A stretch of 64,000 nt of DNA from Patescibacteria group bacterium. GTDB lineage: Bacteria; Patescibacteriota; Microgenomatia; UBA1400; PJMF01. Numbering within the stretch: position 1 is the stretch's first letter; each line of letters opens with the position of its first letter. The translations under genes and the position numbers were made by a program. Where the stretch lies: the NCBI GenBank assembly GCA_052035325.1, contig JBPOHR010000011.1, positions 8,131 to 72,130 on the forward strand, given 5' to 3'. The notes beneath the pieces were generated by a model. It was not told where the DNA came from. It saw nothing but the letters and a program-made list of their open reading frames with translations, and made no database searches. Shown piece by piece: positions 18,797 to 49,230 of this stretch.

Positions 18797-19378
18797 CTAT
18801 CTATTTCTCAACCGTGTTGTGGTAGTAAATGTCTGTTCGACAATATCTTTTGCCTGATCTATTCCCGGTATACCCTTGCGCAAAGTGAACGAAACGTCCA
18901 CAGCAGTCCCCCCTGCTCCACTCTGGCTGCAGTTAAACATCACCCGATCATCAGGATTTGGACCATTTTGAATTAATTCGACAGCAGCCGTCGTCAAGTA
19001 TGTGGTAGCTGTGGCTGAGGTGGAGGCAACTTTATACGTGCCAGAACCAGGCGGATCTTCGAGCGCTGTCAGTGTGTACAATCCACCATCAAAGCCTTTG
19101 ACAACCACCGATGTCATACTTGGTTGACAGGTTTGGCCATCGGCGTTTTGTTGGAGTTCTAGAGCATTACGGAGTAGAAACTCCATTTGTGCAATCGCCG
19201 CCGTGCCTTCCGTTTTTATCAGACTTAAACTATTGGTTTTAGTGTTGCCTATCAGTAGAGTGATGAACAATGTCGACGCAGTTAGCAGCAACATTACTGA
19301 CAACGTCACCACAATCAACAACTCAATTAAAGTAAAACCCCGTTGTGATTGTCGCATTTGATGGGAGTGGGCGTACAT
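18797..19378 (-). CDS. Type IV pilin-like protein (minus strand)
   Basis: QRG/FTLIELLIVVTLSVMLLL prepilin motif. Confidence 0.7.
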   Translation of the reverse strand: MYAHSHQMRQSQRGFTLIELLIVVTLSVMLLLTASTLFITLLIGNTKTNSLSLIKTEGTAAIAQMEFLLRNALELQQNADGQTCQPSMTSVVVKGFDGGLYTLTALEDPPGSGTYKVASTSATATTYLTTAAVELIQNGPNPDDRVMFNCSQSGAGGTAVDVSFTLRKGIPGIDQAKDIVEQTFTTTTRLRNR

Positions 19379-19379
19379 G

Positions 19380-21884
19380 CTAGTTGGTTTCCTGCCAGGT
19401 GTAGCTGGGGCGAGTCATTGGCTCAGGGAGTGTATTCACCAGATCAGGACGGAAGATAAATAGGTCAGCAGGAATGGTGTTGTTATCAGGGTCTGGCAAG
19501 ACACGCTGGAGCGATACACCAGTCCATCCTACAAAACTGCCTGCTCCAACAAATCGTTGATCTGCACTACCCCCTATGGTTCCGGTGCTGATGGTGCCAT
19601 CAGCTACGTAGATGCCCTCCAGATTCGGAGTGGCGTCGGTGCTGACAGGGTTGCCCACACTTGGGTCGATAGTAATATTCCCTTTGACGATAAATGCTAG
19701 ATACCCACCATTTGCGACGGTGATCAGTTGCGGTGTCGCTGGGGTTTCATCAGTAATGGTCAAGTTGCCATCCACAAAGATGGTTAGCGATTCACCACTC
19801 GCTACCTGCCAAGCATTTTTAATAATCAAATCACCCTGGTAATAGTACGCTTCACCACCGTTTGTTGGGGCGATGATGGGTTTTTGGGCATTGAGCGGAT
19901 CAAAGCCATCACTTGCAGGCGCATTTCCTAAACCAAACCGCGCTTTGAAGAAGGCAAAATCCTGGCGACCACTCGCTGTCCCCAAAATACGAGTTGCGGT
20001 ATTGAACACACTCGAGCCACGATCGGTCAACCGCGAGGTGTTGTACCCGTCACTTTCTTGAGTTGTATCAAGTGATGAGCCATTAGTAACGGCAATTCCC
20101 GCCGAATCAGTATCACCTGCCGTGTTGGTAGCCAACAAAAAGGGTGAGCAGCCGGGCGCACTGCAGACAGCACTTGGCGGCACGTTTGAGCCGATTCCCA
20201 GACTCGATGAAGCAGCCGCGTAGACATTGCCACCTTGGACTTGCCACCAGGCAGTGTTTAACACATCAGCAAAGAAAAAGTTATTACCACTTGAGGGCGA
20301 AGAGATGCCACTCAGGACACAGTTACCTCCTACATCCGTGCCACAGTTGCAACGATATGGGATGCCTGTCCCGGACAGTCCGGGGGTGAAGGTGATGACG
20401 TTGTTGGGATTGGTACTCCAGTAGGGCGTGTTGGGGAACGTATAGCTTGACGCACTGAGTGATGGTCCAGTGGTGCTGCTGTAGCCGCCTAAGCCGGCAA
20501 TGCTAATCATGCTACCGGTGCCAGGAGTGACGAGCGAAGCTGTTGCAGGATTGCAAGTGTTGCTGGGGTCGTAGTAGAAGTTACCCGAGACATCGCCAAT
20601 GAGTGAGACGACATGGGTGGCTGTCCAGGTGCCGTTGTCTGCGCCGCCGTAGGCGGCGCAAGTGGTGTTGATTGGTCGGACGCGGACTTCCCAAATAGTG
20701 ATACCTGCTGGGATGCCACTCCAGGTGTATGAGGTACCTGATACCGCTTGGCAAAGGGTATTTCCGCCAGTGCACTCGACTTGACCTTGCGGCGTGATGC
20801 GGATTTCGTAGGCATCAGCCAAGGTGGGTGGTGCGGTCCAAGTGAAGGCGACTTGATCGGTTGTAGGAGTCACTGTGAAAACAGTACCACTGGGTAGTGC
20901 GCCATTTGCCCGTAGGTTAGTGACTGCGACTGGTCCACCATCGTCGGTAGTGGGACAGGTGCCGGTACAGCCATCCCATTGTCCACAAGCACCTCCCGAA
21001 CAGTTAGCCGTACAATTCAAAACCGTGACTTGACGAGAGCCTTCACACTTCAAATCGCTATAGTTACCATCTTCATGAACACGAATTTTCAGAATAGAAG
21101 AGCCAGCAGTGTTGGAAGTCAGATTGGATACAAACGTTGGCCCTGTGCCAATTGAGCTGGGGTTGACAACACCCAGGTTGGCACCGTTCCAAGTGAACGT
21201 ACCGTCCCACCAATTGATTGCCCCATTTGCATAGGCTTGAACTTCTACAGTTTGTCCCAGCGGCATTGTGATTGGTCCGGTGCCAGTCGTGCTAGTAGGC
21301 TGCCACTGCACAGTACAAGCCGCTCCCCCACCTCCACACGTGCCAGGGTCCCAAAGACAGCTTCCATTAGGAGCTAAGACACATTGACTGGGAGGTCCAG
21401 GTGGACAGTTGCTACAAGAAGTGCCACAAGCACCCCAAGTTGGTGGCGGGGGTGGGCCTCCACTGCCACAACTATCAGTTACCCAGTCTGCACATGACTT
21501 AGTATTTGGCATGCAGGAGCTACAGCCAGGACAGTAGAATGTCCCAGAGGGGCAGGATGTAGTAGCACAGGTGATAGTGCTATTCTCATCAATCGTCATA
21601 CAGTGACTAACCCCATCTGGGACATCGCAAGAATCAGTGCAGTTTCTGTGAATTAATGGTAGCGGGCCAGTACAAGCTCCACCGGATAATGAACAACTTC
21701 CGCCGACAATAGTGTCAACTGGTGAGCAACACAATTCATGTGTTAATGGGCTAACAAGCTGTGATTGGCAATACTGTGCAGTATAGGGATACAAATATGT
21801 GCCACACACTTGAGCTGTTGCAGGCATGACATGAACCAATGTGAGAAAAATACAGACAACAGCAATGAGTAGTGCTTTTTTCAT
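19380..21884 (-). CDS. Large secreted Cys-rich protein (candidate pilus-associated adhesin)
   Basis: Signal peptide MKKALLIAVVCIFLTLVHVMPATAQ; about 60 Cys in CxxC/CxC arrays; PPPP tract; Gly/Thr/Ser-rich; stop overlaps start of the upstream pilin-like gene. Confidence 0.5.
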   Translation of the reverse strand: MKKALLIAVVCIFLTLVHVMPATAQVCGTYLYPYTAQYCQSQLVSPLTHELCCSPVDTIVGGSCSLSGGACTGPLPLIHRNCTDSCDVPDGVSHCMTIDENSTITCATTSCPSGTFYCPGCSSCMPNTKSCADWVTDSCGSGGPPPPPTWGACGTSCSNCPPGPPSQCVLAPNGSCLWDPGTCGGGGAACTVQWQPTSTTGTGPITMPLGQTVEVQAYANGAINWWDGTFTWNGANLGVVNPSSIGTGPTFVSNLTSNTAGSSILKIRVHEDGNYSDLKCEGSRQVTVLNCTANCSGGACGQWDGCTGTCPTTDDGGPVAVTNLRANGALPSGTVFTVTPTTDQVAFTWTAPPTLADAYEIRITPQGQVECTGGNTLCQAVSGTSYTWSGIPAGITIWEVRVRPINTTCAAYGGADNGTWTATHVVSLIGDVSGNFYYDPSNTCNPATASLVTPGTGSMISIAGLGGYSSTTGPSLSASSYTFPNTPYWSTNPNNVITFTPGLSGTGIPYRCNCGTDVGGNCVLSGISSPSSGNNFFFADVLNTAWWQVQGGNVYAAASSSLGIGSNVPPSAVCSAPGCSPFLLATNTAGDTDSAGIAVTNGSSLDTTQESDGYNTSRLTDRGSSVFNTATRILGTASGRQDFAFFKARFGLGNAPASDGFDPLNAQKPIIAPTNGGEAYYYQGDLIIKNAWQVASGESLTIFVDGNLTITDETPATPQLITVANGGYLAFIVKGNITIDPSVGNPVSTDATPNLEGIYVADGTISTGTIGGSADQRFVGAGSFVGWTGVSLQRVLPDPDNNTIPADLFIFRPDLVNTLPEPMTRPSYTWQETN

Positions 21885-22399
21885 TTTTGGTATAAAAGTT
21901 GAAGTTCGTTTATCGAGCGACTTATTGTAACCACTTCACTGCTGCCGGTAAGATCCTTTAAATCCGATTCGTTTGGAACAAACATAATCACCACCCAGTC
22001 CTTGTTTAGGTTAGTGATATCCAACAAGGGTGTCAGTTGAAAGTTAATAGTTGAAGGAATTTTGAAATCACTGATCTGCGATGTTGCCATGTATGGATTA
22101 TTGAAGTCGATTTGTCGTACTGTGATTGTTTTTTGTTTTCCTTGATACGATGAGTGAAGTCGCCAACTATTTGCCGATGTATCTTTTCTCAGTGTGCCGA
22201 CAATGTATACAAATGGATTACTTTGAAGACGATTTATTCCATAATGTATTTGAGTTTTAGTAGATGATAAAGATAGATCGATTTCAGGTGGTGTGCTTGG
22301 AATACTGAGCGGCGTATATCGTTGTCGCAACAGAAACAACCCTCCGACAAGTAAACATACTAGCGCTACAACAACTAACCAACGACGTAAATGATTCAC
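21881..22399 (-). CDS. Hypothetical membrane-anchored protein
   Basis: N-terminal TM LVVVALVCLLVGGLFLL; 4-nt overlap with downstream gene. Confidence 0.4.
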   Translation of the reverse strand: MNHLRRWLVVVALVCLLVGGLFLLRQRYTPLSIPSTPPEIDLSLSSTKTQIHYGINRLQSNPFVYIVGTLRKDTSANSWRLHSSYQGKQKTITVRQIDFNNPYMATSQISDFKIPSTINFQLTPLLDITNLNKDWVVIMFVPNESDLKDLTGSSEVVTISRSINELQLLYQK

Positions 22400-22451
22400 G
22401 ATACCAGTTTGACTGAAAAACTACTTGAAGTCAATTTTCGTCTACTTTGAG

Positions 22452-24458
22452 TTATTCGGTGTCCCCGTACCAGAGATCATTGCGAAAGTCATCTACTATT
22501 TCAGTTGGCACGAGCATTGTACTTGCTGAAACAATAAGAGTTTTTCTACTATTAGGAGCATTAGAATTTCCTACCAGAAAATCCATTGTTGTTTGGTCGT
22601 CTCCTCCAGCTGAGTACAGCGCTGAGGCAAGAGCGGCACAGTTTACACCACAATCGAAATGATCAGCTAATCCCTGGGTTAAACTATCTAAAGAAAATAT
22701 TTCTGGATATTCGTTAGACAAACCAAGTCCAAACAAAGTTCCAGGAGGCATATCTGTTTGAAGTGATTCGAATGGACGTCCTTGCATGTCAGCATGCGAT
22801 CCACCGCCATGAATGACAACAGCACTCCCTTCTTGCATTGGGAGTGAGAGTAATACCCACCCTGTCCCATCGCCGGTTGGTACTAACATGTCCAAAAAGC
22901 GTAGAGTTCCTCGAATATCTCCATTTACATATGGACGTGTGCGTATGCCCATAAACCAGCCGACTACTACTAGTCCATCTTGACCTAATATCCTCTCAGG
23001 ATTTGGAGCAATACCCGGTCGCAATCCTGTGAGCTCATTATTAAATGGTACGACAAAGTCATGACCATCAATTCTGAGCACATACCCATTTTCTGTTGAT
23101 GAGTAGCTGATATTAGAGCGAGCCAAGACTTGCTCAATTTGATCAAATGTAGAAGTCGGGTTTTCAAGGACGTTTAGTAAGCTCATTGAGCTCATCGCCT
23201 CAATATCCACAAGCGTTTCCAATACAACAGGGCTGTCTCCAGGATTCAATCCTGGCAGAACTAGCTCAGTCACATTAAGGCTTACCACTCCAAGATTAAT
23301 CCATCCCACCTGACCATTGACACTAACTCGTATCCAGTGACTTTCTGGATCATTTTCACCACCAGAAATCGTCTTCATCGTGGGGAGTCCCATGTATGTT
23401 GATGGCTCAACATTTTCAGTCCAACCCTCTGGTTCATCCGTCGGTGTTTGTGTAGGGACTGGTGTTTCTTCAGTACCAACCGAGCCTATCTCATTGTCCC
23501 CAAACCTTGGCTCAGAGCGCAGGTTAATAGTAGTATTTGGTGTAATTGTTACAGCTGGCAATAATGCTATCGGGATACCTTTTGCAATTATGGTTTTAAT
23601 ATGTACATTTGACCCATCGGTGTTGAAAGATAAAAGAATAAAATTGCCAACCGGTGGGAACTCAAAGTCTTCCAAGCTGGGGTAGGTGGTACGCAAGGTA
23701 GCTATTGTTTCATCTGTTACTTGTATAAATGTTGCTCGCTCATTCTCATTGGCAAACAAATATGAGACAATTTGTTCTCCATTTTGTCCTGTAACTGTCG
23801 TGATCAGTGAACCGGTACCGACAACAGGGCCGTCAGGTACGGTAAATGATTCCGTGCAATGCAATGCAGCTAGCACTCTGAAACCAGTGCGATCTGCGTT
23901 TGGCGTTACAAACAATCTTAACGAAAAGTTGTCCTCGGAAATATCTTCCCGGCCTTCAATGAACCTCCCCATCACTTGCAGCAAAGACTGGATTTCCCTT
24001 CCCAACTCGGAGTTTTCGTCAATTCCATACTCCCCGAAGGGATTTGTCACGGGAAGTTCAAAAGGTTCCGTACCTGGTTGTGTGGCTGAATAGGACAAAA
24101 CTTCAAAAATACCGCCAGACTCTGCAGTGATGCTGACAGGGGTATAGCCTTGAATTTCGTTAGATTCGATCTGTTTTTCAGGCGAGCGATGCTCCAAAAG
24201 CGAGTCAATCTCAGTGTTAGGAGGTGCAATGTGTGGATCTCCGGCAGGAGGATCTTCGTTATTTATTACGTCTCGCTCAGCATTGGCGGGTATTACCCGT
24301 CCAAGCAGTGCAGATAGCGCAACTGCTAAAACCACCAGACGTCTATTAAGTCCACGTCTCTCACCTGAGCGCGGAACCATATTCGGCAATTTACCACGAT
24401 CACGTACAATTGTTGTGCCTGCTGTTTCTTTTAAATTGTTCATTGTTTCGTCTACCAT
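22452..24458 (-). CDS. Large hypothetical secreted/membrane-anchored protein
   Basis: N-terminal anchor LVVLAVALSALLG; PT-rich linker; no confidently recognisable catalytic motif. Confidence 0.4.
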   Translation of the reverse strand: MVDETMNNLKETAGTTIVRDRGKLPNMVPRSGERRGLNRRLVVLAVALSALLGRVIPANAERDVINNEDPPAGDPHIAPPNTEIDSLLEHRSPEKQIESNEIQGYTPVSITAESGGIFEVLSYSATQPGTEPFELPVTNPFGEYGIDENSELGREIQSLLQVMGRFIEGREDISEDNFSLRLFVTPNADRTGFRVLAALHCTESFTVPDGPVVGTGSLITTVTGQNGEQIVSYLFANENERATFIQVTDETIATLRTTYPSLEDFEFPPVGNFILLSFNTDGSNVHIKTIIAKGIPIALLPAVTITPNTTINLRSEPRFGDNEIGSVGTEETPVPTQTPTDEPEGWTENVEPSTYMGLPTMKTISGGENDPESHWIRVSVNGQVGWINLGVVSLNVTELVLPGLNPGDSPVVLETLVDIEAMSSMSLLNVLENPTSTFDQIEQVLARSNISYSSTENGYVLRIDGHDFVVPFNNELTGLRPGIAPNPERILGQDGLVVVGWFMGIRTRPYVNGDIRGTLRFLDMLVPTGDGTGWVLLSLPMQEGSAVVIHGGGSHADMQGRPFESLQTDMPPGTLFGLGLSNEYPEIFSLDSLTQGLADHFDCGVNCAALASALYSAGGDDQTTMDFLVGNSNAPNSRKTLIVSASTMLVPTEIVDDFRNDLWYGDTE

Positions 24459-24766
24459 GACTCTTTTCTAGCACACTCTATGTGTAAAAGAAAGGTAGGT
24501 AGTCTGTTGCATTTTTTTACTACATTTTGGTGTTATAGTTATTTATTATAAGCCTAATTAAGTTTATAAAAAAAATACCCTATAGCACCTGGTAGGCGCA
24601 TTATACAAAAGGCCTAGAGAAATATAAATGTGTATTTAATGAGTATGTAAAAATTGACATGTATGTTAATTATACCTATTTCATCTAGTGGTAAAATATA
24701 CAGGCGTTGAGCTGGGATATAACCTGGGACACAACAACATGAGATAATTTATAAATAAGTGAAAAT

Positions 24767-25741
24767 ATGTTAGATGAACAGAAATCTAAAAGAATTTTTA
24801 TTGAATCTCCACTCTTAGATGTAAATCAAGTAGCTGCCTTTTTGTTTTCACTTCGACCAGAAAGGCCCCAAAGAGTGGTTGCATCACGATATGTTGCACG
24901 GGCTAAACTGACAAGTAGAGACAGACAAAACACAAAAAAAGCATATGAAAATGGTTCGGCTACGGAATTTGCTTCACTATATGAATGGGATCCTTCTGTT
25001 GTTAGGTCATCATTGATTGATAGCATAGGTCCTTTTGTCGAGGCTTTTGATGATACTAATAAAGATAAAAAAAAGTCTTGGATTTTGTTGGTTGGTTGTG
25101 GAACGGGCAGGGATTTCATGGAACTTTGGAAAAGAGGATTTAATGCTCTAGCTTTTGATATCTCTATGGCAATGATAGAAAATCTTAAAAGAATTTTGAC
25201 AAATTCATTAGTGCCACCTCATAATGTAGCGTTAATGTTGAACGAAGTTGCTCGTGACCTCAATCAGGTGGTCTTTGTTGCGGATGTAATGGACCCCTCT
25301 TGGAGGCGAAACAGCAGCGTTGCATCAGGTGAAGTTGATTTATTTGATGCTGTATTTGCTGAAACTGTTTTAGGGCATCTAGACAAGGAAGAAGTATTTG
25401 AATTTTTTGAAAGATATTCTAACAATCTGTCACAGGGTGGAATAATACGAGCAGGTTTGAGAATTTCCAAGAGTGGAAAAGTGTTTATTCTTGAAGACAG
25501 TCTTGGATCAAGAAGTTTTACAACGTGGAAATTCGAAGATCTATGGTTGACTACTCTAACGAGAAAAGGTACACAAATTACAGATTATGATCACATGGGC
25601 GAGCTGGGTGAATTACTCAAATATCTAGCAGAAATAGGTTTGAGAATTATAAAAATCTACACGAATAAACATCCATGCTCCACAGAAGAAAACCCCCGAC
25701 CAGATACATTAAATCTGATTTTACAAAAAGTAACTAGATAG
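24767..25741 (+). CDS. Class I SAM-dependent methyltransferase (AT-rich island)
   Basis: Motif I LLVGCGTGRDFMEL and post-I acidic residue ..AFDIS; the ORF is about 30-38% GC vs about 48% in flanking DNA. Confidence 0.6.
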   Translation: MLDEQKSKRIFIESPLLDVNQVAAFLFSLRPERPQRVVASRYVARAKLTSRDRQNTKKAYENGSATEFASLYEWDPSVVRSSLIDSIGPFVEAFDDTNKDKKKSWILLVGCGTGRDFMELWKRGFNALAFDISMAMIENLKRILTNSLVPPHNVALMLNEVARDLNQVVFVADVMDPSWRRNSSVASGEVDLFDAVFAETVLGHLDKEEVFEFFERYSNNLSQGGIIRAGLRISKSGKVFILEDSLGSRSFTTWKFEDLWLTTLTRKGTQITDYDHMGELGELLKYLAEIGLRIIKIYTNKHPCSTEENPRPDTLNLILQKVTR

Positions 25742-25780
25742 AATACGTCACGATTATTTTTTCTCTGATATAATATAGCA

Positions 25781-26365
25781 ATGAATATTTATTTTACTGC
25801 AGCTATTTTTCAAATGCCGACACATGGTGGCTATTACGCAAAGATAATTGAGACATTAAAAAAACAAGGCCATAACGTCGTTCACGATCATATTACCGAT
25901 TATACTCCCGATGATTTTGGATCTCTTGTAAGTCAGACAGACGAGAACAAGAAGCAATACTACTCCAAGGTATTGAAATGGATTTCCAAGGCAGACTTAG
26001 TAGTTGCAGAATTGTCATTTCCCTCAACTTTGAATGTAGGACATGAGGTAACGATGGCTCTGAGTAAGGGTAAGCCTGTAGTTGGTCTATACTTTAAAGA
26101 TCAAGAATCTTTTTTCTTTGAAGGGATTCAATCAGACAAATTTGTTTACGAATCATATACAGCTGAGACCTTAGCTGAAACACTTGAGCAAGCACTAGAA
26201 TATGCTCAGGAAATTTCAGATACCCGTTTCAATTTCTTCATCTCCCCTTCTCTCTCGCACTACCTAGACTGGGTGTCACAAACAAAAAAAATCCCCAGGT
26301 CTGTCTACCTTCGTCAACTGATTGAAGAGGACCGTGAGCAGAATAAAGCATACTTTGATGCGTAG
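25781..26365 (+). CDS. Nucleoside 2-deoxyribosyltransferase-like (NDT/DNPH1-like) protein
   Basis: MNIYFTAAIF start and ...LNVGHEVTMALSKGKPVVGLY resemble the NDT 'MKIYLAGPFF ... GTAFEIGYA.A.GKPV' core; paralog of 33398..33835. Confidence 0.5.
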   Translation: MNIYFTAAIFQMPTHGGYYAKIIETLKKQGHNVVHDHITDYTPDDFGSLVSQTDENKKQYYSKVLKWISKADLVVAELSFPSTLNVGHEVTMALSKGKPVVGLYFKDQESFFFEGIQSDKFVYESYTAETLAETLEQALEYAQEISDTRFNFFISPSLSHYLDWVSQTKKIPRSVYLRQLIEEDREQNKAYFDA

Positions 26366-26454
26366 CTAGAGCTGGTGAGCTGTCTCCCCGACACAAGAGA
26401 CCATTTTTTCCTCAAGCATTGCAGAATGTCGCCAAACCCATTACGATGGTGTAG

Positions 26455-27267
26455 ATGGCACGATCTATTGTCGCACGCGGCTGCGATCCCCAACCACTTC
26501 GTCACTCCTCAGAATCTGGCCAGATTGGTGTGGTTATTTTGTTGATTATGGTGGTTATTTTGACCATAGGTTTGTCAGTTGCCACTCGGACGACCCAAGA
26601 AACCTTTTTGACGACCCAAACAGCAGAGTCGGCGCGCGTCTTCAACGCCGCTGAAGCCGGCGCAGAAGCCGCGCTTAGCATGGATTTTGCATCACTTACC
26701 GACCAGATCACGAACGGTTCGGTCACGACTATCCCCGACACCACCGTCAATTATCAAGTACAACAACACCAGACACTCGAGACAAAAATCTTTGAAGGCG
26801 TGCCGGTGGCAGTTGATGTCACCAATGTCTCGGGAGGTCAAGGCATTGTGATCCAGTGGAGTAAGCAAGACTGCGCCAACAATCCTGCGGCCTTTTTGGC
26901 GACTATTTACTCTGAGCAAGCTGGTGTGACGAAGACTCGTTATCGGGCAATTGGCAACTGCAATCGAGGTGACAACTTCGAGCAAGCCACTTCGCTAGCT
27001 GCCACCGAACCGTACCGATTTGAGTTTACGTTGACGCTGCAGGTTGATGATCTGTATGTGCGTCTGTTACCTCTCTACAATGACACTGATTTGCGAGTGA
27101 GTGCGACAGGAGGTTGGTCACTTCCCACCCAGTTTTACACAATCCGATCTGAAGCCAGAAATGACTTAGGCAATGAGACGCGCATCATTGAAGTCAATCG
27201 CACATTGCCCACTGCGCCGGCGATTCTTGATTTTGCGCTATTTAGTGGGGGTGCAGTTGTCAAATAA
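26455..27267 (+). CDS. PilX-like type IV pilus minor component (PilX_N-like N-terminus)
   Basis: ...GQIGVVILLIMVVILTIGLSVATRTTQETF....ARVFNAAEAGAEAAL matches the PilX N-domain pattern; directly upstream of pilM. Confidence 0.5.
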   Translation: MARSIVARGCDPQPLRHSSESGQIGVVILLIMVVILTIGLSVATRTTQETFLTTQTAESARVFNAAEAGAEAALSMDFASLTDQITNGSVTTIPDTTVNYQVQQHQTLETKIFEGVPVAVDVTNVSGGQGIVIQWSKQDCANNPAAFLATIYSEQAGVTKTRYRAIGNCNRGDNFEQATSLAATEPYRFEFTLTLQVDDLYVRLLPLYNDTDLRVSATGGWSLPTQFYTIRSEARNDLGNETRIIEVNRTLPTAPAILDFALFSGGAVVK

Positions 27268-27317
27268 TTTTCTCGTAGTCTTGATGGCGTAATTCTGGTA
27301 AAGTGGATATATAGCCT

Positions 27318-28331
27318 ATGCCCATAGCTCTTGCCCTCGATATCGGTTCCTACACTATCAAAGCCATTAGTGCCAAACCAGGCGCGCGTCCCAACGTGCA
27401 GCGTGTGGTGGAGGTATTTAATCCCCTAGGCATTAGTGTGCCTGGAGACGAGGCTCAGATCGAGAAGTTGGCAGCACAGGTTCAAGCAGTCATCACCGAT
27501 AACAAGTTACCGACGATCGATGTTCGGTTGGCCCTCCCAGAAAGCGTGGTTTCAACCAAGGTTATTTCTTTACCGAGTTTGACTGATGCTGAATTAGCTT
27601 CGGCAATTGGTTGGCAAGCAGAACAACACATTCCCATCCCCCCCGAAGAGCTTTCTCTCGAGTATGAAGTGTTGTTTCGACCACCGCGCAAGGACAAAAA
27701 TACACTCATGCGAGTGTTGTTGGTTGGTGTGCGTAAATCGGTGATTGAGAAATACATGGCTGTGTTTGGTCTACTCGGTATCGAGCCGACAATTCTCGAG
27801 ACCCAGATGATGTCAATTATTCGCTCGGCGCAGTTTGCAGCGACCGATCCAGCTACTTTGATAGTTCACTTGGGAGCCGCTACCATGGATATGGCTTTGG
27901 TCAATCAGGGTCAACTTGATTTTGTCATTTCGCACTTGAGTGGTGGTCAATCTTTGACCAAACTTCTGTCACAGCAGATTGGTTTGGATGCTGCCCAGGC
28001 AGAAAGTTACAAACGGACGTATGGTCTAGAGCCTGAACAGTTCCAAGGTAAGGTGCGTGGGGTGCTTTTGCCTGCAACAACAATATTACTTAGCGAGATG
28101 CAAAAATCGGTTCGTTTTTTCTTATCGCAACATCCCGCTGAACAAGTCAAACGAATAGTACTCTCGGGTGGGACTGCTCAGTTGCCAGGCTTTGTACAGT
28201 ATATTACTCAAGAACTGGGCACGGAAGTGCTCGTGGCAGCTCCCTTTACCCCCGCAACTGGTCAATTACCGTCAGTCAATCACGCAGCTCTGACCGTGTG
28301 TATGGGTCTGTTGATGCGGGAAGGCAACTAG
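27318..28331 (+). CDS. pilM: Type IV pilus assembly protein PilM (actin-like ATPase fold)
   Basis: ALDIGSYTIKAI start, actin/FtsA-like fold length (337 aa), followed by pilN/pilO. Confidence 0.8.
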   Translation: MPIALALDIGSYTIKAISAKPGARPNVQRVVEVFNPLGISVPGDEAQIEKLAAQVQAVITDNKLPTIDVRLALPESVVSTKVISLPSLTDAELASAIGWQAEQHIPIPPEELSLEYEVLFRPPRKDKNTLMRVLLVGVRKSVIEKYMAVFGLLGIEPTILETQMMSIIRSAQFAATDPATLIVHLGAATMDMALVNQGQLDFVISHLSGGQSLTKLLSQQIGLDAAQAESYKRTYGLEPEQFQGKVRGVLLPATTILLSEMQKSVRFFLSQHPAEQVKRIVLSGGTAQLPGFVQYITQELGTEVLVAAPFTPATGQLPSVNHAALTVCMGLLMREGN

Positions 28332-28337
28332 CCGACC

Positions 28338-28892
28338 ATGCCAAGTATTAACTTTTTGCGCGAGCGTCGCCGAAAACTGACCAAACAGCAAAAGTTCGAT
28401 TTCCAGGCTTTTCGCGTAACCAGTGTGGTCTGTGTGGTGGCGGTGGTGTTGTTGGTTGCAACTGTATCGGCTCGACTCGCTTTGGCTATGATGGTAAGTC
28501 GCTCGACTCAAGAACAAAATCGGTTGATGACGAGCATCAAACAGCAGGAAACAAACGAACGTACGTATCTAGTTTTTGCGGCAAAATTGAAGGCTCTCAG
28601 TGAGCTCTTGGCTCAGCGTCAGGATAAACAGTTAGCTATTACCTACTTTTCAACAATTTTTGGTGAAGGTGTGTTGGTAAGTGACATATCCTACGATGGT
28701 GATGCAGAGACATTGACCTTTGGATTGAAAGCTGCAGACGTTTTTACCCTCGAAAAAGTACTACAAGTTCTCAAGAGCGAAGATGTAAAGCAACAATTTG
28801 AAGGAGTGAAAACTGACGCTATTTCTCGCTCAACAACTGCTGAATATCAGACTACTGTCACGATTGTTCTAAAAAAGGATTCTGACCAATAA
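28338..28892 (+). CDS. pilN: Type IV pilus assembly protein PilN
   Basis: Basic N-terminus, single TM, coiled coil; positional homolog. Confidence 0.65.
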   Translation: MPSINFLRERRRKLTKQQKFDFQAFRVTSVVCVVAVVLLVATVSARLALAMMVSRSTQEQNRLMTSIKQQETNERTYLVFAAKLKALSELLAQRQDKQLAITYFSTIFGEGVLVSDISYDGDAETLTFGLKAADVFTLEKVLQVLKSEDVKQQFEGVKTDAISRSTTAEYQTTVTIVLKKDSDQ

Positions 28893-28895
28893 ACT

Positions 28896-29729
28896 ATGCC
28901 CTCTGCCAAGCCTGTCGCTACCACTCAAGAATTTTCGATCAGATATCTGATGGATGTCAGGCGATACATGGCGTTGACGATTTTGCTGATAACTACCTCC
29001 CTTGCGGTATCTTTCTTTGGTACTTGGCCACAAGTGCAGGCTAGCATCGAGATGTGGCGCACGTATGAAGCGAGTGAGGCAAAGGTCAAGTCATTGGCAG
29101 CCAAAAATCGCCAGCTTCAAGATGTGCTTGACCCTACCCTACTTGATCAGATAAATACCGTGGACAGTTTGTTACCTTCACGCAAACCGCTGATTGAACT
29201 ATTGACCGCAGTCAACGTGCTCAGTAAGCAAACTCAAGTAGTAATTACCTCGGTCGAACTGCGGCCTGGGGCAATTGCGACTGACGGTGCTAAGGTGTCA
29301 AATCGTGGCCAACTGAAAAAGGGTGACAGCGACACACTCGAGATCAATATGATTGTGAGCGGGACATTATCTCAAGTGAATCAATTTTTCAATACTATTG
29401 AGCGGACTACCCCACTGACGACTATAACGTCACTTTCCTTGACACCCAAAGACAGAAACACTGCTCTAGTATCGACAGATACCATTGCCTCGTTACAAAA
29501 TCGTGCATACCAGGCAGAATTGACACTTGCTGCTTCATACTTCACTCGTCCGGTGAGTGCCAATCTAGATGCCTCATTGCCGCAACTTAGTAGTGATCAA
29601 ACCAAGTTGATTAGTGATTTGAAGACATTTACGGTCAACAAAATTGACCCCCAAACCCAGATTTTGGGTGGTGGCCTTGAGGATCTGTTTAAAACAGTCA
29701 AACCAGAGATTGTGACGATTGGTGAGTAG
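28896..29729 (+). CDS. pilO: Type IV pilus assembly protein PilO
   Basis: Single N-terminal TM plus coiled coil, position after pilN. Confidence 0.6.
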   Translation: MPSAKPVATTQEFSIRYLMDVRRYMALTILLITTSLAVSFFGTWPQVQASIEMWRTYEASEAKVKSLAAKNRQLQDVLDPTLLDQINTVDSLLPSRKPLIELLTAVNVLSKQTQVVITSVELRPGAIATDGAKVSNRGQLKKGDSDTLEINMIVSGTLSQVNQFFNTIERTTPLTTITSLSLTPKDRNTALVSTDTIASLQNRAYQAELTLAASYFTRPVSANLDASLPQLSSDQTKLISDLKTFTVNKIDPQTQILGGGLEDLFKTVKPEIVTIGE

Positions 29730-33397: not shown

Positions 33398-33835
33398 TTA
33401 CTTTTCGGAATGTTGATCAGAGAAAAATTTTTCTAAAATTACCTGAACATTTTCGTCCGTATACATCTGCAGATTAATTTCATCTTTTCTGCCTTGCAAC
33501 ATCAGACTAGCATTCTGGTATGTTTCTCCCCAATGAATACTAAGCAATGGCTTATGTAGCGCAAGTGCCTTATCGATAAAAAAACCTGCGCCAAAACTAG
33601 GAGTGGTACATTCTGTAATTAATACATCAGCTTTCTCCAATTTTTGGACTGCTTCCGAGTAGACTGTTTCTGCATCAAGATTTGTTTGCCAGTGAGGGTC
33701 AGATGCATACGTGGGGTCGACAAGTTCTTTAGTAAGTACTTCATGTCCCATTTTTTCGATAAGTGATACGATGCTTTGAGTTACTGGTAGCGTATGTCGT
33801 TCTCTAGTAACGGATGTGCTAAAAAAGACTTTCAT
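33398..33835 (-). CDS. Nucleoside 2-deoxyribosyltransferase-like protein (paralog of 25781..26365)
   Basis: MKVFFSTSVT ... IVSLIEKMGHEVLTKELVD ... LEKADVLITECTTPSFGAGFFIDKALALHKPLL aligns colinearly with 25781..26365 (IIETLKKQGHNVVHDHITD ... ISKADLVVAELSFPSTLNVGHEVTMALSKGKPVV); AT-rich. Confidence 0.5.
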   Translation of the reverse strand: MKVFFSTSVTRERHTLPVTQSIVSLIEKMGHEVLTKELVDPTYASDPHWQTNLDAETVYSEAVQKLEKADVLITECTTPSFGAGFFIDKALALHKPLLSIHWGETYQNASLMLQGRKDEINLQMYTDENVQVILEKFFSDQHSEK

Positions 33836-48276: not shown

Positions 48277-49230
48277 TTAGATTTTAAGCAAGAGTTCGTT
48301 TAGCTTTTCGCGGACAACGATTGACGACACATATGCCTTGTATTCTGGGTTGGCTTTTTGTGCTTCGCGAGCCTTAGGATCAGCGATGCGAGCAAAGTAC
48401 TTCTCGAGATCATCGTCTGTTGTGGTAGTGCCGGTTTCTTCGCGAATTGCATCAAGTACGAGTTCGAGTTGGACTCTACCCAGGACTTGCATAGCTAGAT
48501 CAGTCGACAGTTGTTCGAAGGTCAATTTGCGATGTTTTAAGTAATCATCCAGAGTCATCTTCATGCCTTGAAGCTGGCGAACGATATAATCTAGCTCGGC
48601 TTGAGTTTCCTCTTTGAGGAGAAGTTCAGGAATAGTTGGCTTGAAAGTAACCACCAATTGTTTGTAGATTTCTTGCAAGGTGAACTCACGCTGCTCATTC
48701 TCGAGTTGCTCTTTCGTTGTTTCAGGCTTTGCAGTTTCTGATTTGTCTGCTTTTTTCTCTGTTTGGTGTTCTTTGAGATGCTCTGTCCAAGATTTGTCGG
48801 CAGTTTTTTTGGCTTCTTTGACCGTTTTTTCAAAACCCTTGACCGCAATAATTGGTTTTTCTGCTATTGCAACCTCAACTACCCAGTCCTCATTCAGTGG
48901 TGCAGAAGTAATGGTGATGCTAGGTCGAGTTAGTGGCTTTTTCTTATTTTCTTCTAGAGACTGCTGATATTTCACTGGCATAATCTCTTGCAGTGTCCGC
49001 TCCGCGAGTTCTTCATGGCCAACCATGCCAGCAGCAATTGCTGGTGGTACTTTGCCAGGACGGAAACCAGCAGATTTGAGACGCTTAGCTACTTTCGCCA
49101 GGGTTTTATTGTAAATGGGCTCAATTTCACTCCATTTAAAGGTGATATTCCAAGTGGTGTTGGGACCGATTAAGGACTGTTCATTGGAAGTAGTAGGTGT
49201 TGAAGTGGTAGAAGATGTTTTTTTTGGCAC
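48277..49230 (-). CDS. tig: Trigger factor-like chaperone, short form apparently lacking the PPIase domain
   Basis: N-terminal ribosome-binding domain with GFRPGKVP signature (GFRKGKVP in canonical Tig); only 317 aa. Confidence 0.6.
   Translation of the reverse strand: MPKKTSSTTSTPTTSNEQSLIGPNTTWNITFKWSEIEPIYNKTLAKVAKRLKSAGFRPGKVPPAIAAGMVGHEELAERTLQEIMPVKYQQSLEENKKKPLTRPSITITSAPLNEDWVVEVAIAEKPIIAVKGFEKTVKEAKKTADKSWTEHLKEHQTEKKADKSETAKPETTKEQLENEQREFTLQEIYKQLVVTFKPTIPELLLKEETQAELDYIVRQLQGMKMTLDDYLKHRKLTFEQLSTDLAMQVLGRVQLELVLDAIREETGTTTTDDDLEKYFARIADPKAREAQKANPEYKAYVSSIVVREKLNELLLKI

Follow-up and report, generated by a model that had tools for sequence, protein, structure and literature searches.

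A low-GC methyltransferase and DNPH1-like/ribbon-helix-helix gene pair at a Microgenomates pilus locus, a candidate nucleotide-responsive module

The two genes and their products

The stretch 24459–26454 of the DNA analysed here (64 kb from a Patescibacteria group bacterium, hereafter the window) carries two co-oriented genes, with pilus genes on both the upstream and the downstream side as the initial annotation had described. The first encodes a class I S-adenosylmethionine (SAM)-dependent methyltransferase (MTase). The second encodes a protein with an N-terminal domain of the nucleoside 2-deoxyribosyltransferase (NDT) fold, resembling DNPH1/Rcl, and a C-terminal domain predicted to be of the DNA-binding ribbon-helix-helix (RHH) type (Table 1). 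We hold with moderate confidence that this low-GC pair is a clade-specific module of the pilus locus, made of the MTase and of a nucleotide-responsive one-component regulator of DNPH1-like/RHH architecture.

The Pfam family PF05014 recognises the second protein above its cut-off (Table 1) and matches 33 of 35 homologues. A profile of these 35 homologues retrieves rat Rcl/DNPH1 from the PDB with an E-value of 1.1e-14 over residues 3–137. The AlphaFold2 (AF2) model of the protein has a pLDDT (predicted local distance difference test) of 91, and its top Foldseek hit is DNPH1 at a TM-score of 0.82. The top 13 matches are all DNPH1 (TM up to 0.84), followed by MilB/BcmB at ranks 14–39, then by true NDTs and TIR domains. 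Structures of NDTs match more weakly, i.e. at about 1e-4 (3e-4 or worse) in Foldseek versus 1e-8 for DNPH1, and with an E-value of 0.16 (7m5h) in the PDB profile search; the acidic base-binding residues of NDTs are not conserved in the second protein. Sequence and model both indicate that it is closest to DNPH1/Rcl rather than to bona fide NDTs. The label “NDT-like” of the initial annotation thus stands as regards PF05014 and the fold, while the nearest relative is DNPH1/Rcl and the C-terminal RHH domain had been overlooked.

The catalytic residues of DNPH1 are Tyr24, Asp80 (general acid/base) and Glu104 (nucleophile), and its 5'-phosphate site is formed by Ser98, Ser128' and the backbone NH groups of Ile29–Gly31 and Gly100 (PMC10483697). 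Mapped onto DNPH1, the window protein has Tyr4, Glu89, Ser82 and Ser110, and Val64 replaces Asp80. In the 35 closest homologues Tyr4 is invariant and Glu89 is found in at least 90%. Across 84 paralogues the position of Asp80 is hydrophobic, mostly V, L, M, A or T, with no acidic residue among the commonest. Ser82 is retained in 78 of the 84; Ser110 is kept in the subgroup of the window copy and is a proline in 63. The phosphate loop reads A-A-I-F-Q versus G-S-I-R-G in DNPH1, where the contacts are made by the backbone.

The C-terminal residues 147–194 of the window protein (DTRFNFFISPSLSHYLDWVSQTKKIPRSVYLRQLIEED) have a different character. In the AF2 monomer residues 147–155 form an extended, unpaired strand, followed by helices at 156–169 and 173–187. 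The strand follows the pattern D-T-R-F-N-F-F, in which the polar R149 and N151 alternate with the hydrophobic F150 and F152, all nearly invariant. All 84 paralogues have R149, F150 and R178, and 79 have N151. Of 17 C-terminal fragments of homologues, 13 are recognised by Pfam RHH_3 (best E-value 3.9e-5). On these grounds of sequence and model, the C-terminal domain is predicted to be an RHH DNA-binding domain. We found no literature description of a fusion between the DNPH1 fold and RHH, and no NCBIfam model for it. The DNPH1-fold/RHH proteins are a previously undescribed family, native to Microgenomates.

For the first gene, the initial annotation of a class I SAM-MTase with a VGCGTG motif is borne out by two Pfam models above their cut-offs (Methyltransf_25, 34.8 bits; Methyltransf_11, 29.3 bits). 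Motif I, VGCGTG, occupies residues 109–114, and D131 is invariant in 20 syntenic homologues. The structure model is acceptable in the core (pLDDT about 80) and poor over the whole protein (62.6); with Foldseek it retrieves SAM-bound, generic class I MTases. The nearest structures, by PDB profile search and Foldseek, are phosphoethanolamine and glycine/sarcosine N-MTases and other small-molecule N-, O- and C-MTases. No DNA-MTase family is found among its Pfam or NCBIfam matches. Its sequence points to a rapidly diverging MTase of the small-molecule type.

Table 1. Coordinates of the gene pair, its domains, its control regions and the adjoining pilus genes (positions in the window).
Feature	Position	Strand	Remarks
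Divergent pilin-like block	18797–24458	-	193-aa N_methyl pilin and proteins of 834, 172 and 668 aa; AT-rich control region in common
AT-rich divergent intergenic region	24459–24766	.	Between the reverse pilin-like operon (ends 24458) and the MTase gene
Best sigma-70-like leader site, TTTATA-17-TATAAT, 10/12	24600–24628	-	Consensus match only; faces the 668-aa gene and pilin-like operon
Tandem 12-nt direct repeat, CTGGGATATAAC / CTGGGACACAAC	24712–24735	+	In full CTGGGAYAYAAC; 32 nt 5' of the MTase ATG; candidate operator
Class I SAM-dependent MTase, 324 aa	24767–25741	+	Pfam; motif LLVGCGTGRD
Perfect extended -10 (TGnTATAAT), TGATATAAT	25766–25774	+	Ends 6 nt before the ATG of the second gene
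Second protein, open reading frame (ORF) of 194 aa	25781–26365	+	PF05014, 36.3 bits vs cut-off 28.8 (residues 3–115)
DNPH1/Rcl-like (NDT-fold) domain, residues 1–146	25781–26218	+	PF05014, PDB profile, AF2, Foldseek
Predicted RHH domain, residues 147–194 (DTRFNFFISP...YLDW...PRSVYLRQLIEED), and stop	26219–26365	+	RHH_3, AF2
Spacer before the pilX-like gene, 89 nt	26366–26454	+	No terminator-like structure; fold z +0.33
Pilus assembly genes, co-oriented	26455–29729	+	pilX-like, pilM, pilN-like, pilO-like; presumed regulated cargo
pilX-like	26455–27267	+	
pilM	27318–28331	+	
pilN-like	28338–28892	+	
pilO-like	28896–29729	+	

A conserved family, its contexts and its origin

An indexed search returned 358 full-length homologues of the two-domain protein, of about 190 residues. 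In an exhaustive profile search, with clusters counted at 50% identity, 211 clusters were found at E≤1e-30 and 1003 at E≤1e-10. We scanned one genome per species, which gave 56 loci (numbered L below), and clustered the neighbouring genes. Wherever the labels are correct, all 56 belong to Patescibacteria/Microgenomates (Chisholm-, Woese-, Beckwith- and Amesbacteria). Many contigs of metagenome-assembled genomes (L009–L060), one of them 1.41 Mb long, are labelled “uncultured Pseudomonadales”, “Gammaproteobacteria”, “Treponemataceae” or “Vitreimonas sp.”; these labels look wrong because the gene order is that of Microgenomates.

Each locus holds one to five paralogues, which recur in three neighbourhoods. 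Context A, the pilus context, reads: reverse pilin-like block, (NDT) (MTase) NDT > pilX-like > pilM > pilN > pilO, followed by KH/S16/RNase III/NusB/RecG, where NDT stands for a member of the family. This is the gene order of the window, in which the genes for S16, RNase III, NusB and RecG follow beyond the pilO-like gene. Context B surrounds recR: upstream are ybeY-dnaX-ybaB-(PfkB kinase, S-adenosylhomocysteine (SAH) hydrolase, DUF62-type SAM hydrolase, thymidylate synthase)-recR, and after recR come one of an MTase, a radical SAM enzyme and a thymidine-kinase-like or PfkB gene, then NDT(-NDT...)-LmbE-cysS. Context C, at uvrD, reads dusB-uvrD/addA-like-PfkB-radical SAM-NDT, followed by rmlC in reverse orientation and then by pepS, map and rpoD on the plus strand. 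In a neighbour-joining tree the paralogues cluster by context; they are therefore old, vertically inherited copies. The window copy itself nests among the recR-context copies, and for this reason the module is probably a copy of an MTase-NDT unit from the recR context.

At the pilus locus, the order MTase-NDT-pilX-pilM-pilN-pilO is also found in L002, L006–L009, L011, L014, L022, L026, L053 and L060. One of the source samples, SRR34217540, contains a locus identical to that of the window. Across the syntenic loci PilM is 59–74% and the NDT protein 46–67% identical to that of the window; the closest relative, with the same MTase-NDT-pilX-pilM order, stands at 73% and 67% respectively. A second scan, anchored on PilM and hence unbiased as to the presence of the module, provided 28 evaluable loci. 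The module adjoins pilX in 11 of them, including all those with a PilM at least 62% identical, and in nine loci, from more distant clades, the reverse pilin block directly abuts pilX. The initial annotation had seen no obvious relation of the two genes to pili; the conserved adjacency to pilX and pilM contradicts this.

No other gene of the locus evolves nearly as fast as the MTase: between the window and the closest relative it is 24% identical, versus 40–73% for the neighbouring genes (73% for PilM). Searched as a single sequence against an index of 5.8 billion proteins, it returned only itself, and its profile search of the index was swamped by generic MTases. Relatives were recovered via synteny, by pairwise alignment (22–28% identity) and also by profile; because the syntenic MTases are detectable in both ways, the apparent orphan status is a sensitivity artefact. 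The slot upstream of the RHH protein is as a whole hypervariable: syntenic MTases (L003:549-1289, L006:7074-7940, L007:6918-7970 and L060:6837-7991, compared with 24767–25741) share 0–28% identity, and flanking genes 40–73%. In one MTase subgroup (L007, L008, L014) the glycine-rich SAM motif I is degenerate.

The pairing itself is real. For 27 of 85 family members, versus 3 of 607 background genes, the gene immediately 5' on the same strand encodes a class I MTase, and the MTase and NDT genes often overlap by 4 bp (L030, L036, L061). Elsewhere the same slot holds at least four unrelated class I MTase subfamilies, a radical SAM enzyme, a thymidine-kinase-like gene or a PfkB kinase. The earlier proposal of a nucleotide-modifying module is thus sustained in so far as the genes form a functional pair, one member of which has a DNPH1/MilB/BcmB-like domain; the imported island that went with it is not.

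Retention of the active site varies among the 84 paralogues. The nucleophile Glu is kept in 55 and lost in 29; Tyr is kept in 57 and replaced by Phe in 21. One paralogue taken to be naturally inactive lies at L060:6233-6811. An enzyme gene lies upstream of 37 of the 45 copies that have both Tyr and Glu versus 6 of the 39 lost-site copies (Fisher p 8e-10), counts which are uncorrected for shared ancestry and not phylogenetically independent. Retained catalytic/ligand-binding residues go with an enzyme partner. Complete pilus loci show this within a single locus, with a lost-site copy, the MTase, an intact-site copy and pilX in that order. The window has no first (lost-site) copy and the 308-nt leader stands in its place; a tblastn search of the leader for a degenerate NDT copy gave nothing credible. 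Among the loci anchored on PilM, the copies that adjoin pilX and have no MTase have mostly lost Tyr/Glu and keep the R-F-N..R residues of the RHH domain. Because these residues are invariant while Tyr and Glu are lost in many paralogues, the common denominator of the family, as far as sequence can tell, is the predicted DNA-binding module on a DNPH1-like scaffold.

Tandem arrays of four to five DNPH1-like/RHH paralogues occur at L017:526-2858, L027:5069-7388, L070:1142-4966 and L071:471-5131. In L070 four paralogues lie on the opposite strand, right beside the copy that precedes pilX. The R-F-N..R DNA-contact residues are alike in nearly all array copies, so that competition for operators, joint use of operators or mixed oligomers are all conceivable.

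The composition of the stretch had suggested a recent arrival. Its GC content is 0.368, against 0.465 for the whole window, lower than in any other sliding window of equal length (mean 0.465, standard deviation (SD) 0.025; about -3.9 SD), and its tetranucleotide deviation is the strongest in the window. The AT-rich leader of about 300 bp was also correctly described: it measures 308 nt, with a GC content of 0.30. The MTase gene has the lowest GC of the 53 genes of the window (0.370; 0.265 at third codon positions (GC3), z -2.5). The NDT-like gene ranks fourth from the bottom (0.390), and its deficit lies mostly at first and second codon positions, i.e. in amino-acid composition (GC3 z -1.0). 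The reduced GC is thus real and composition is not uniform, as initially proposed.

The inference drawn from it, a horizontally acquired island and alternatively a small conflict or defence cassette, did not hold. Members of the family have a GC below that of their neighbours in 49 of 50 loci, in all three contexts, by 4.8 points on average; low GC is a family-wide trait. No tRNA, integrase or flanking direct repeats were found bounding the stretch, and its position is conserved in many genomes, down to 46% identity of the NDT protein. PADLOC returned nothing for the NDT-like protein and only a generic, weak MTase-domain match (mad2) for the MTase; phage genomes and PHROGs contain no relatives of the NDT-like protein, and the other contexts of the family are housekeeping ones. 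The stretch is a vertically inherited, ancient, clade-specific insertion at the pilus locus and no recent import, because the module lies next to pilX in the near clade and the pilin block abuts pilX in the distant ones. The word “inserted” in the initial annotation is therefore right for the deep history only. The pair is also common in the lineage, with no salvage role known for it.

Other features of the window lie around the pair. On the plus strand upstream are PilB, PilT, PilC and four N_methyl pilins, next to which comes the reverse pilin-like block; homologues of its 193-aa and 834-aa proteins hold the same position in L006–L008, L011 and L060. The 834-aa pilus-associated protein has no Pfam match, and inside its gene (minus strand) the segment 19400–21000 reaches a GC of 0.58 and is the second-strongest tetranucleotide deviation of the window. 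In the pilin block, the plus-strand ORF pairs 14032–14865/14673–15785 and 16271–16756/16704–17252 overlap by about 190 and 50 nt respectively; the downstream ORF starts are probably over-extended. A stand-alone DNPH1/NDT-like paralogue of 145 aa, without RHH, is encoded at 33398–33835 on the minus strand (PF05014 E-value 0.014; 23% identical to the RHH-bearing protein). Its catalytic residues are gone (Tyr to Phe in “VFFSTS”, Glu to Phe in “GAGFFI”), and its gene, with the third-lowest GC of the genes in the window (0.384), sits in a second low-GC pocket beside recG.

Control regions and proposed function

The leader 24459–24766 is presumed to be the control region of both divergent units. The initial annotation had read in it a TTGACA-N17-TATACC promoter; TTGACA is found at 24654–24659 and TATACC follows 11 nt on, not 17. 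In our promoter scan of the leader no plus-strand site reaches the threshold, and its best sigma-70-like site faces the pilin-like operon (Table 1). The motif GATATAAY, with 3 occurrences in 64 kb (in the 24712–24735 repeat, at 25767–25774 and at 48583), is a possible operator half-site, or these sites are merely promoter -10 elements. The leader has no Rfam match and its fold is not beyond shuffles (z -0.63). A riboswitch or structured leader was accordingly rejected, the folds of the leader and of the NDT-pilX spacer being no better than shuffles.

The second gene has no visible Shine-Dalgarno sequence ahead of it, and TATAAT-like boxes 6–12 nt 5' of the ATG recur in about ten homologous loci. 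Together with the extended -10 element of the window (Table 1), this sequence pattern suggests that the second gene is transcribed from a promoter of its own, giving an mRNA that is leaderless or nearly so. A possible internal promoter lies within the MTase coding sequence, about 555 nt 5' of the second gene: TTGACA-18-CATAAT at 25196–25225 (plus strand), which at 11/12 is the best sigma-70-like site of the region. Downstream, the short spacer of the window (Table 1) and the NDT-pilX gaps of 2–166 nt in 8 other loci make co-transcription of the second gene with the pilus genes likely.

For the second protein we infer DNA binding, a ligand, regulated targets and, if there is any, catalysis along the following lines. 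The protein would dimerise, and the paired RHH strands would bind an operator in the AT-rich divergent region and/or at its own extended -10 promoter. Occupancy of the DNPH1-like pocket would alter DNA binding. The ligand would be a molecule resembling a (deoxy)nucleoside 5'-monophosphate, which the neighbouring MTase could plausibly supply as its product or a by-product. Nucleotide status would in this way be linked to the transcription of the module itself, of pilX-pilMNO downstream and perhaps of the divergent pilin-like operon. The DNPH1-like domain might still be catalytic besides sensing.

The location speaks for such a regulator: at the divergent region between two pilus operons, the family gene stands first or second in a unit that shares its orientation with pilX. 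The regulator reading also fits a nucleotide-scavenging lineage with naturally competent relatives; natural competence is reported in Patescibacteria (PMC10187176).

Several observations weigh against this regulator reading. The RHH assignment of the window copy falls short of the Pfam cut-off (RHH_3 at 15.3–18.1 bits versus 21.6); the best PDB match of the C-terminus, the CopG-family regulator 7by2, is not significant (E-value 0.42), and the RHH profile gave no significance against Arc and Mnt. Contexts B and C are housekeeping neighbourhoods without pilus genes. In L021, L026 and L038 an oppositely oriented gene stands between the family member and pilX, and many related clades have no member of the family at the pilus locus, so control of pili is not obligatory. 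The intact- and lost-site counts share the dependence on ancestry given above, and the retention of Tyr4, Glu89, Ser82 and Ser110 in the window copy fits an active enzyme equally. Finally, a search for a shared operator with k-mers of k = 7–10, in intergenic regions near versus far from the family, found only AT-rich words resembling -10 elements (the best, ATTATATC, at 12 vs 2, is not significant after multiple testing), and a search for gapped palindromes and spaced direct repeats in the promoters of 57 transcription units found nothing.

The main rival explanation is one that we consider possible though rather unlikely. The pair would form a two-step pathway: a nucleotide or nucleoside would first be modified by the MTase and then be split at its N-glycosidic bond by the DNPH1-like domain, with the RHH domain serving only for autoregulation as in PutA. 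The outcome would be sanitation of salvaged modified deoxynucleoside monophosphates or release of a free methylated base, and salvage of DNA imported by the pilus would account for the location. Besides Glu89, Tyr4 and the phosphate-binding Ser82/Ser110, this explanation can call on the substrates of the closest folds, which are modified pyrimidine nucleotides (hydroxymethyl-dUMP for DNPH1, hydroxymethyl-CMP (hmCMP) for MilB; PMC10483697), and on the strong association of intact-site copies with an enzyme gene directly upstream. The recR context, moreover, holds genes for thymidylate synthase, nucleoside-kinase-like PfkB, SAH hydrolase and thymidine-kinase-like proteins. In Borrelia, a parasite with a reduced genome, purine salvage centres on an NDT (PMC2764106), and Patescibacteria are reported to be naturally competent (PMC10187176). 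Set against it are the hydrophobic residue at the Asp80 position in all 84 paralogues and the absence of the nucleophile in one third of them while the RHH remains perfect, so that catalysis is not the common function. The variability of the MTase (24% syntenic identity; motif I degenerate in the c33 subgroup) also makes a fixed step difficult to imagine.

The variety of the upstream slot invites another enzymatic proposal, in which the DNPH1-like domain would cleave, as a nucleosidase, or else sense the adenosyl by-products of SAM enzymes (SAH, 5'-deoxyadenosine, 5'-methylthioadenosine), relieving product inhibition of the adjacent MTase or radical SAM enzyme, with MetJ-like feedback by the RHH domain. 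That slot holds class I MTases of at least four unrelated subfamilies as well as radical SAM enzymes, and SAH hydrolase, the SAM-hydrolase-like DUF62 and the PfkB kinase recur in the recR context. Ser82 and Ser110, however, match a 5'-phosphate site, yet SAH and 5'-deoxyadenosine carry no phosphate; the thymidine-kinase-like and PfkB partners yield no SAM-derived adenosyl by-products; and to our knowledge there is no precedent for an NDT fold acting on SAH. We regard this proposal as improbable.

RHH is the commonest DNA-binding fold of antitoxins, and the best PDB match of the C-terminus is a CopG-family regulator. These points, the arrays of up to four to five copies (L017, L027, L070) and the paralogues with lost active sites could speak for a toxin-antitoxin-like or selfish multicopy element, with an antitoxin-type RHH domain fused to an NDT/TIR-like nucleotide-degrading effector. 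But the paralogues form context-specific clades in stable syntenic positions, they are part of core operons, following recR or preceding pilX, no small ORF accompanies them as a partner, and the family is confined to one lineage and is not patchy, which makes such an element very improbable. A recently acquired island, possibly for defence or conflict, could invoke the deviant composition, the fast MTase that looks orphan in a word-indexed search, the mad2 match, the relation of the NDT fold to TIR/ThsB folds and the absence of the module from the site in related clades, and we give it almost no credit in view of the conserved position, family-wide low GC, housekeeping contexts, negative mobility, PADLOC and phage searches and resolved orphan status set out above.

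The regulator reading can be extended to the whole family, in a form that we offer as speculative and think unlikely. The DNPH1-fold/RHH proteins would be a Microgenomates network of nucleotide-gated transcription factors, in which intact-site copies make and/or consume a signal and lost-site copies read it, and one branch would switch the DNA-uptake pilus. If this were true, the signal would be a modified nucleotide or free base from the MTase, radical SAM or kinase partners (compare IPT and LOG, below), and switching of the pilus by the nucleotide pool would link competence to salvage in organisms unable to make nucleotides.

Comparison with known systems

Patescibacteria have tiny genomes and few recognisable regulators and rely on scavenging for nucleotides; roles in DNA uptake and in contact with the host are ascribed to their type IV pili. 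The family is a testable candidate for nucleotide sensing and for control of pili and DNA metabolism (pilus, recR/dnaX and rpoD neighbourhoods). The pairing of intact sites with an enzyme gene, alongside lost-site copies, offers a natural series for enzyme-to-sensor evolution. More generally, a sharp low-GC “island” can be intrinsic to a conserved gene family and not a sign of horizontal transfer.

DNPH1/Rcl is the best match in both sequence and fold; the window copy has the nucleophile Glu, the partner Tyr and Ser at the two positions that bind phosphate in DNPH1. The window family differs by Val or another hydrophobic residue for Asp80, by its phosphate-loop sequence and by the added C-terminal RHH; it is prokaryotic and multicopy, and has lost the catalytic residues in many paralogues. 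MilB and BcmB, the hmCMP/CMP N-glycosidases of mildiomycin and bacimethrin, belong to the same NDT-fold nucleotide glycosidase clade as the window domain. In the bacimethrin cluster the glycosidase lies alongside a thymidylate-synthase-like enzyme, a SAM methyltransferase and a kinase, a mix that resembles the recR-context neighbours of the family. MilB and BcmB, in contrast, are without RHH and are found in secondary-metabolite clusters of Firmicutes and Actinobacteria, not in core loci, and the window family shows no sign of a hydroxymethylase partner. With the NDTs (Lactobacillus NDT, Borrelia bb0426) the second protein shares PF05014, the fold and the theme of salvage in reduced genomes (PMC2764106). 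Its structural similarity to them is lower than to DNPH1, and its phosphate-site Ser residues suggest nucleotides, not nucleosides.

A transferase that may modify a nucleotide, next to a putative nucleotide N-glycosidase, recalls, by analogy only, the cytokinin enzymes IPT, which modifies the base, and LOG, a nucleotide phosphoribohydrolase that sets the modified base free; the top Foldseek matches of the second protein, 4kxm and 4kxn, are DNPH1, a binder of N6-substituted AMPs. LOG differs in having the SLOG fold.

NikR (Ni), MetJ (SAM co-repressor) and PutA (proline dehydrogenase) combine RHH with a ligand-binding or enzyme domain, and autoregulation from the head of an operon is typical. 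By analogy, the second protein would follow the same one-component logic, with DNA read by an RHH dimer and a further domain that binds a small molecule or is itself an enzyme; it differs from them in that its RHH is C-terminal and its partner domain has the DNPH1/NDT fold.

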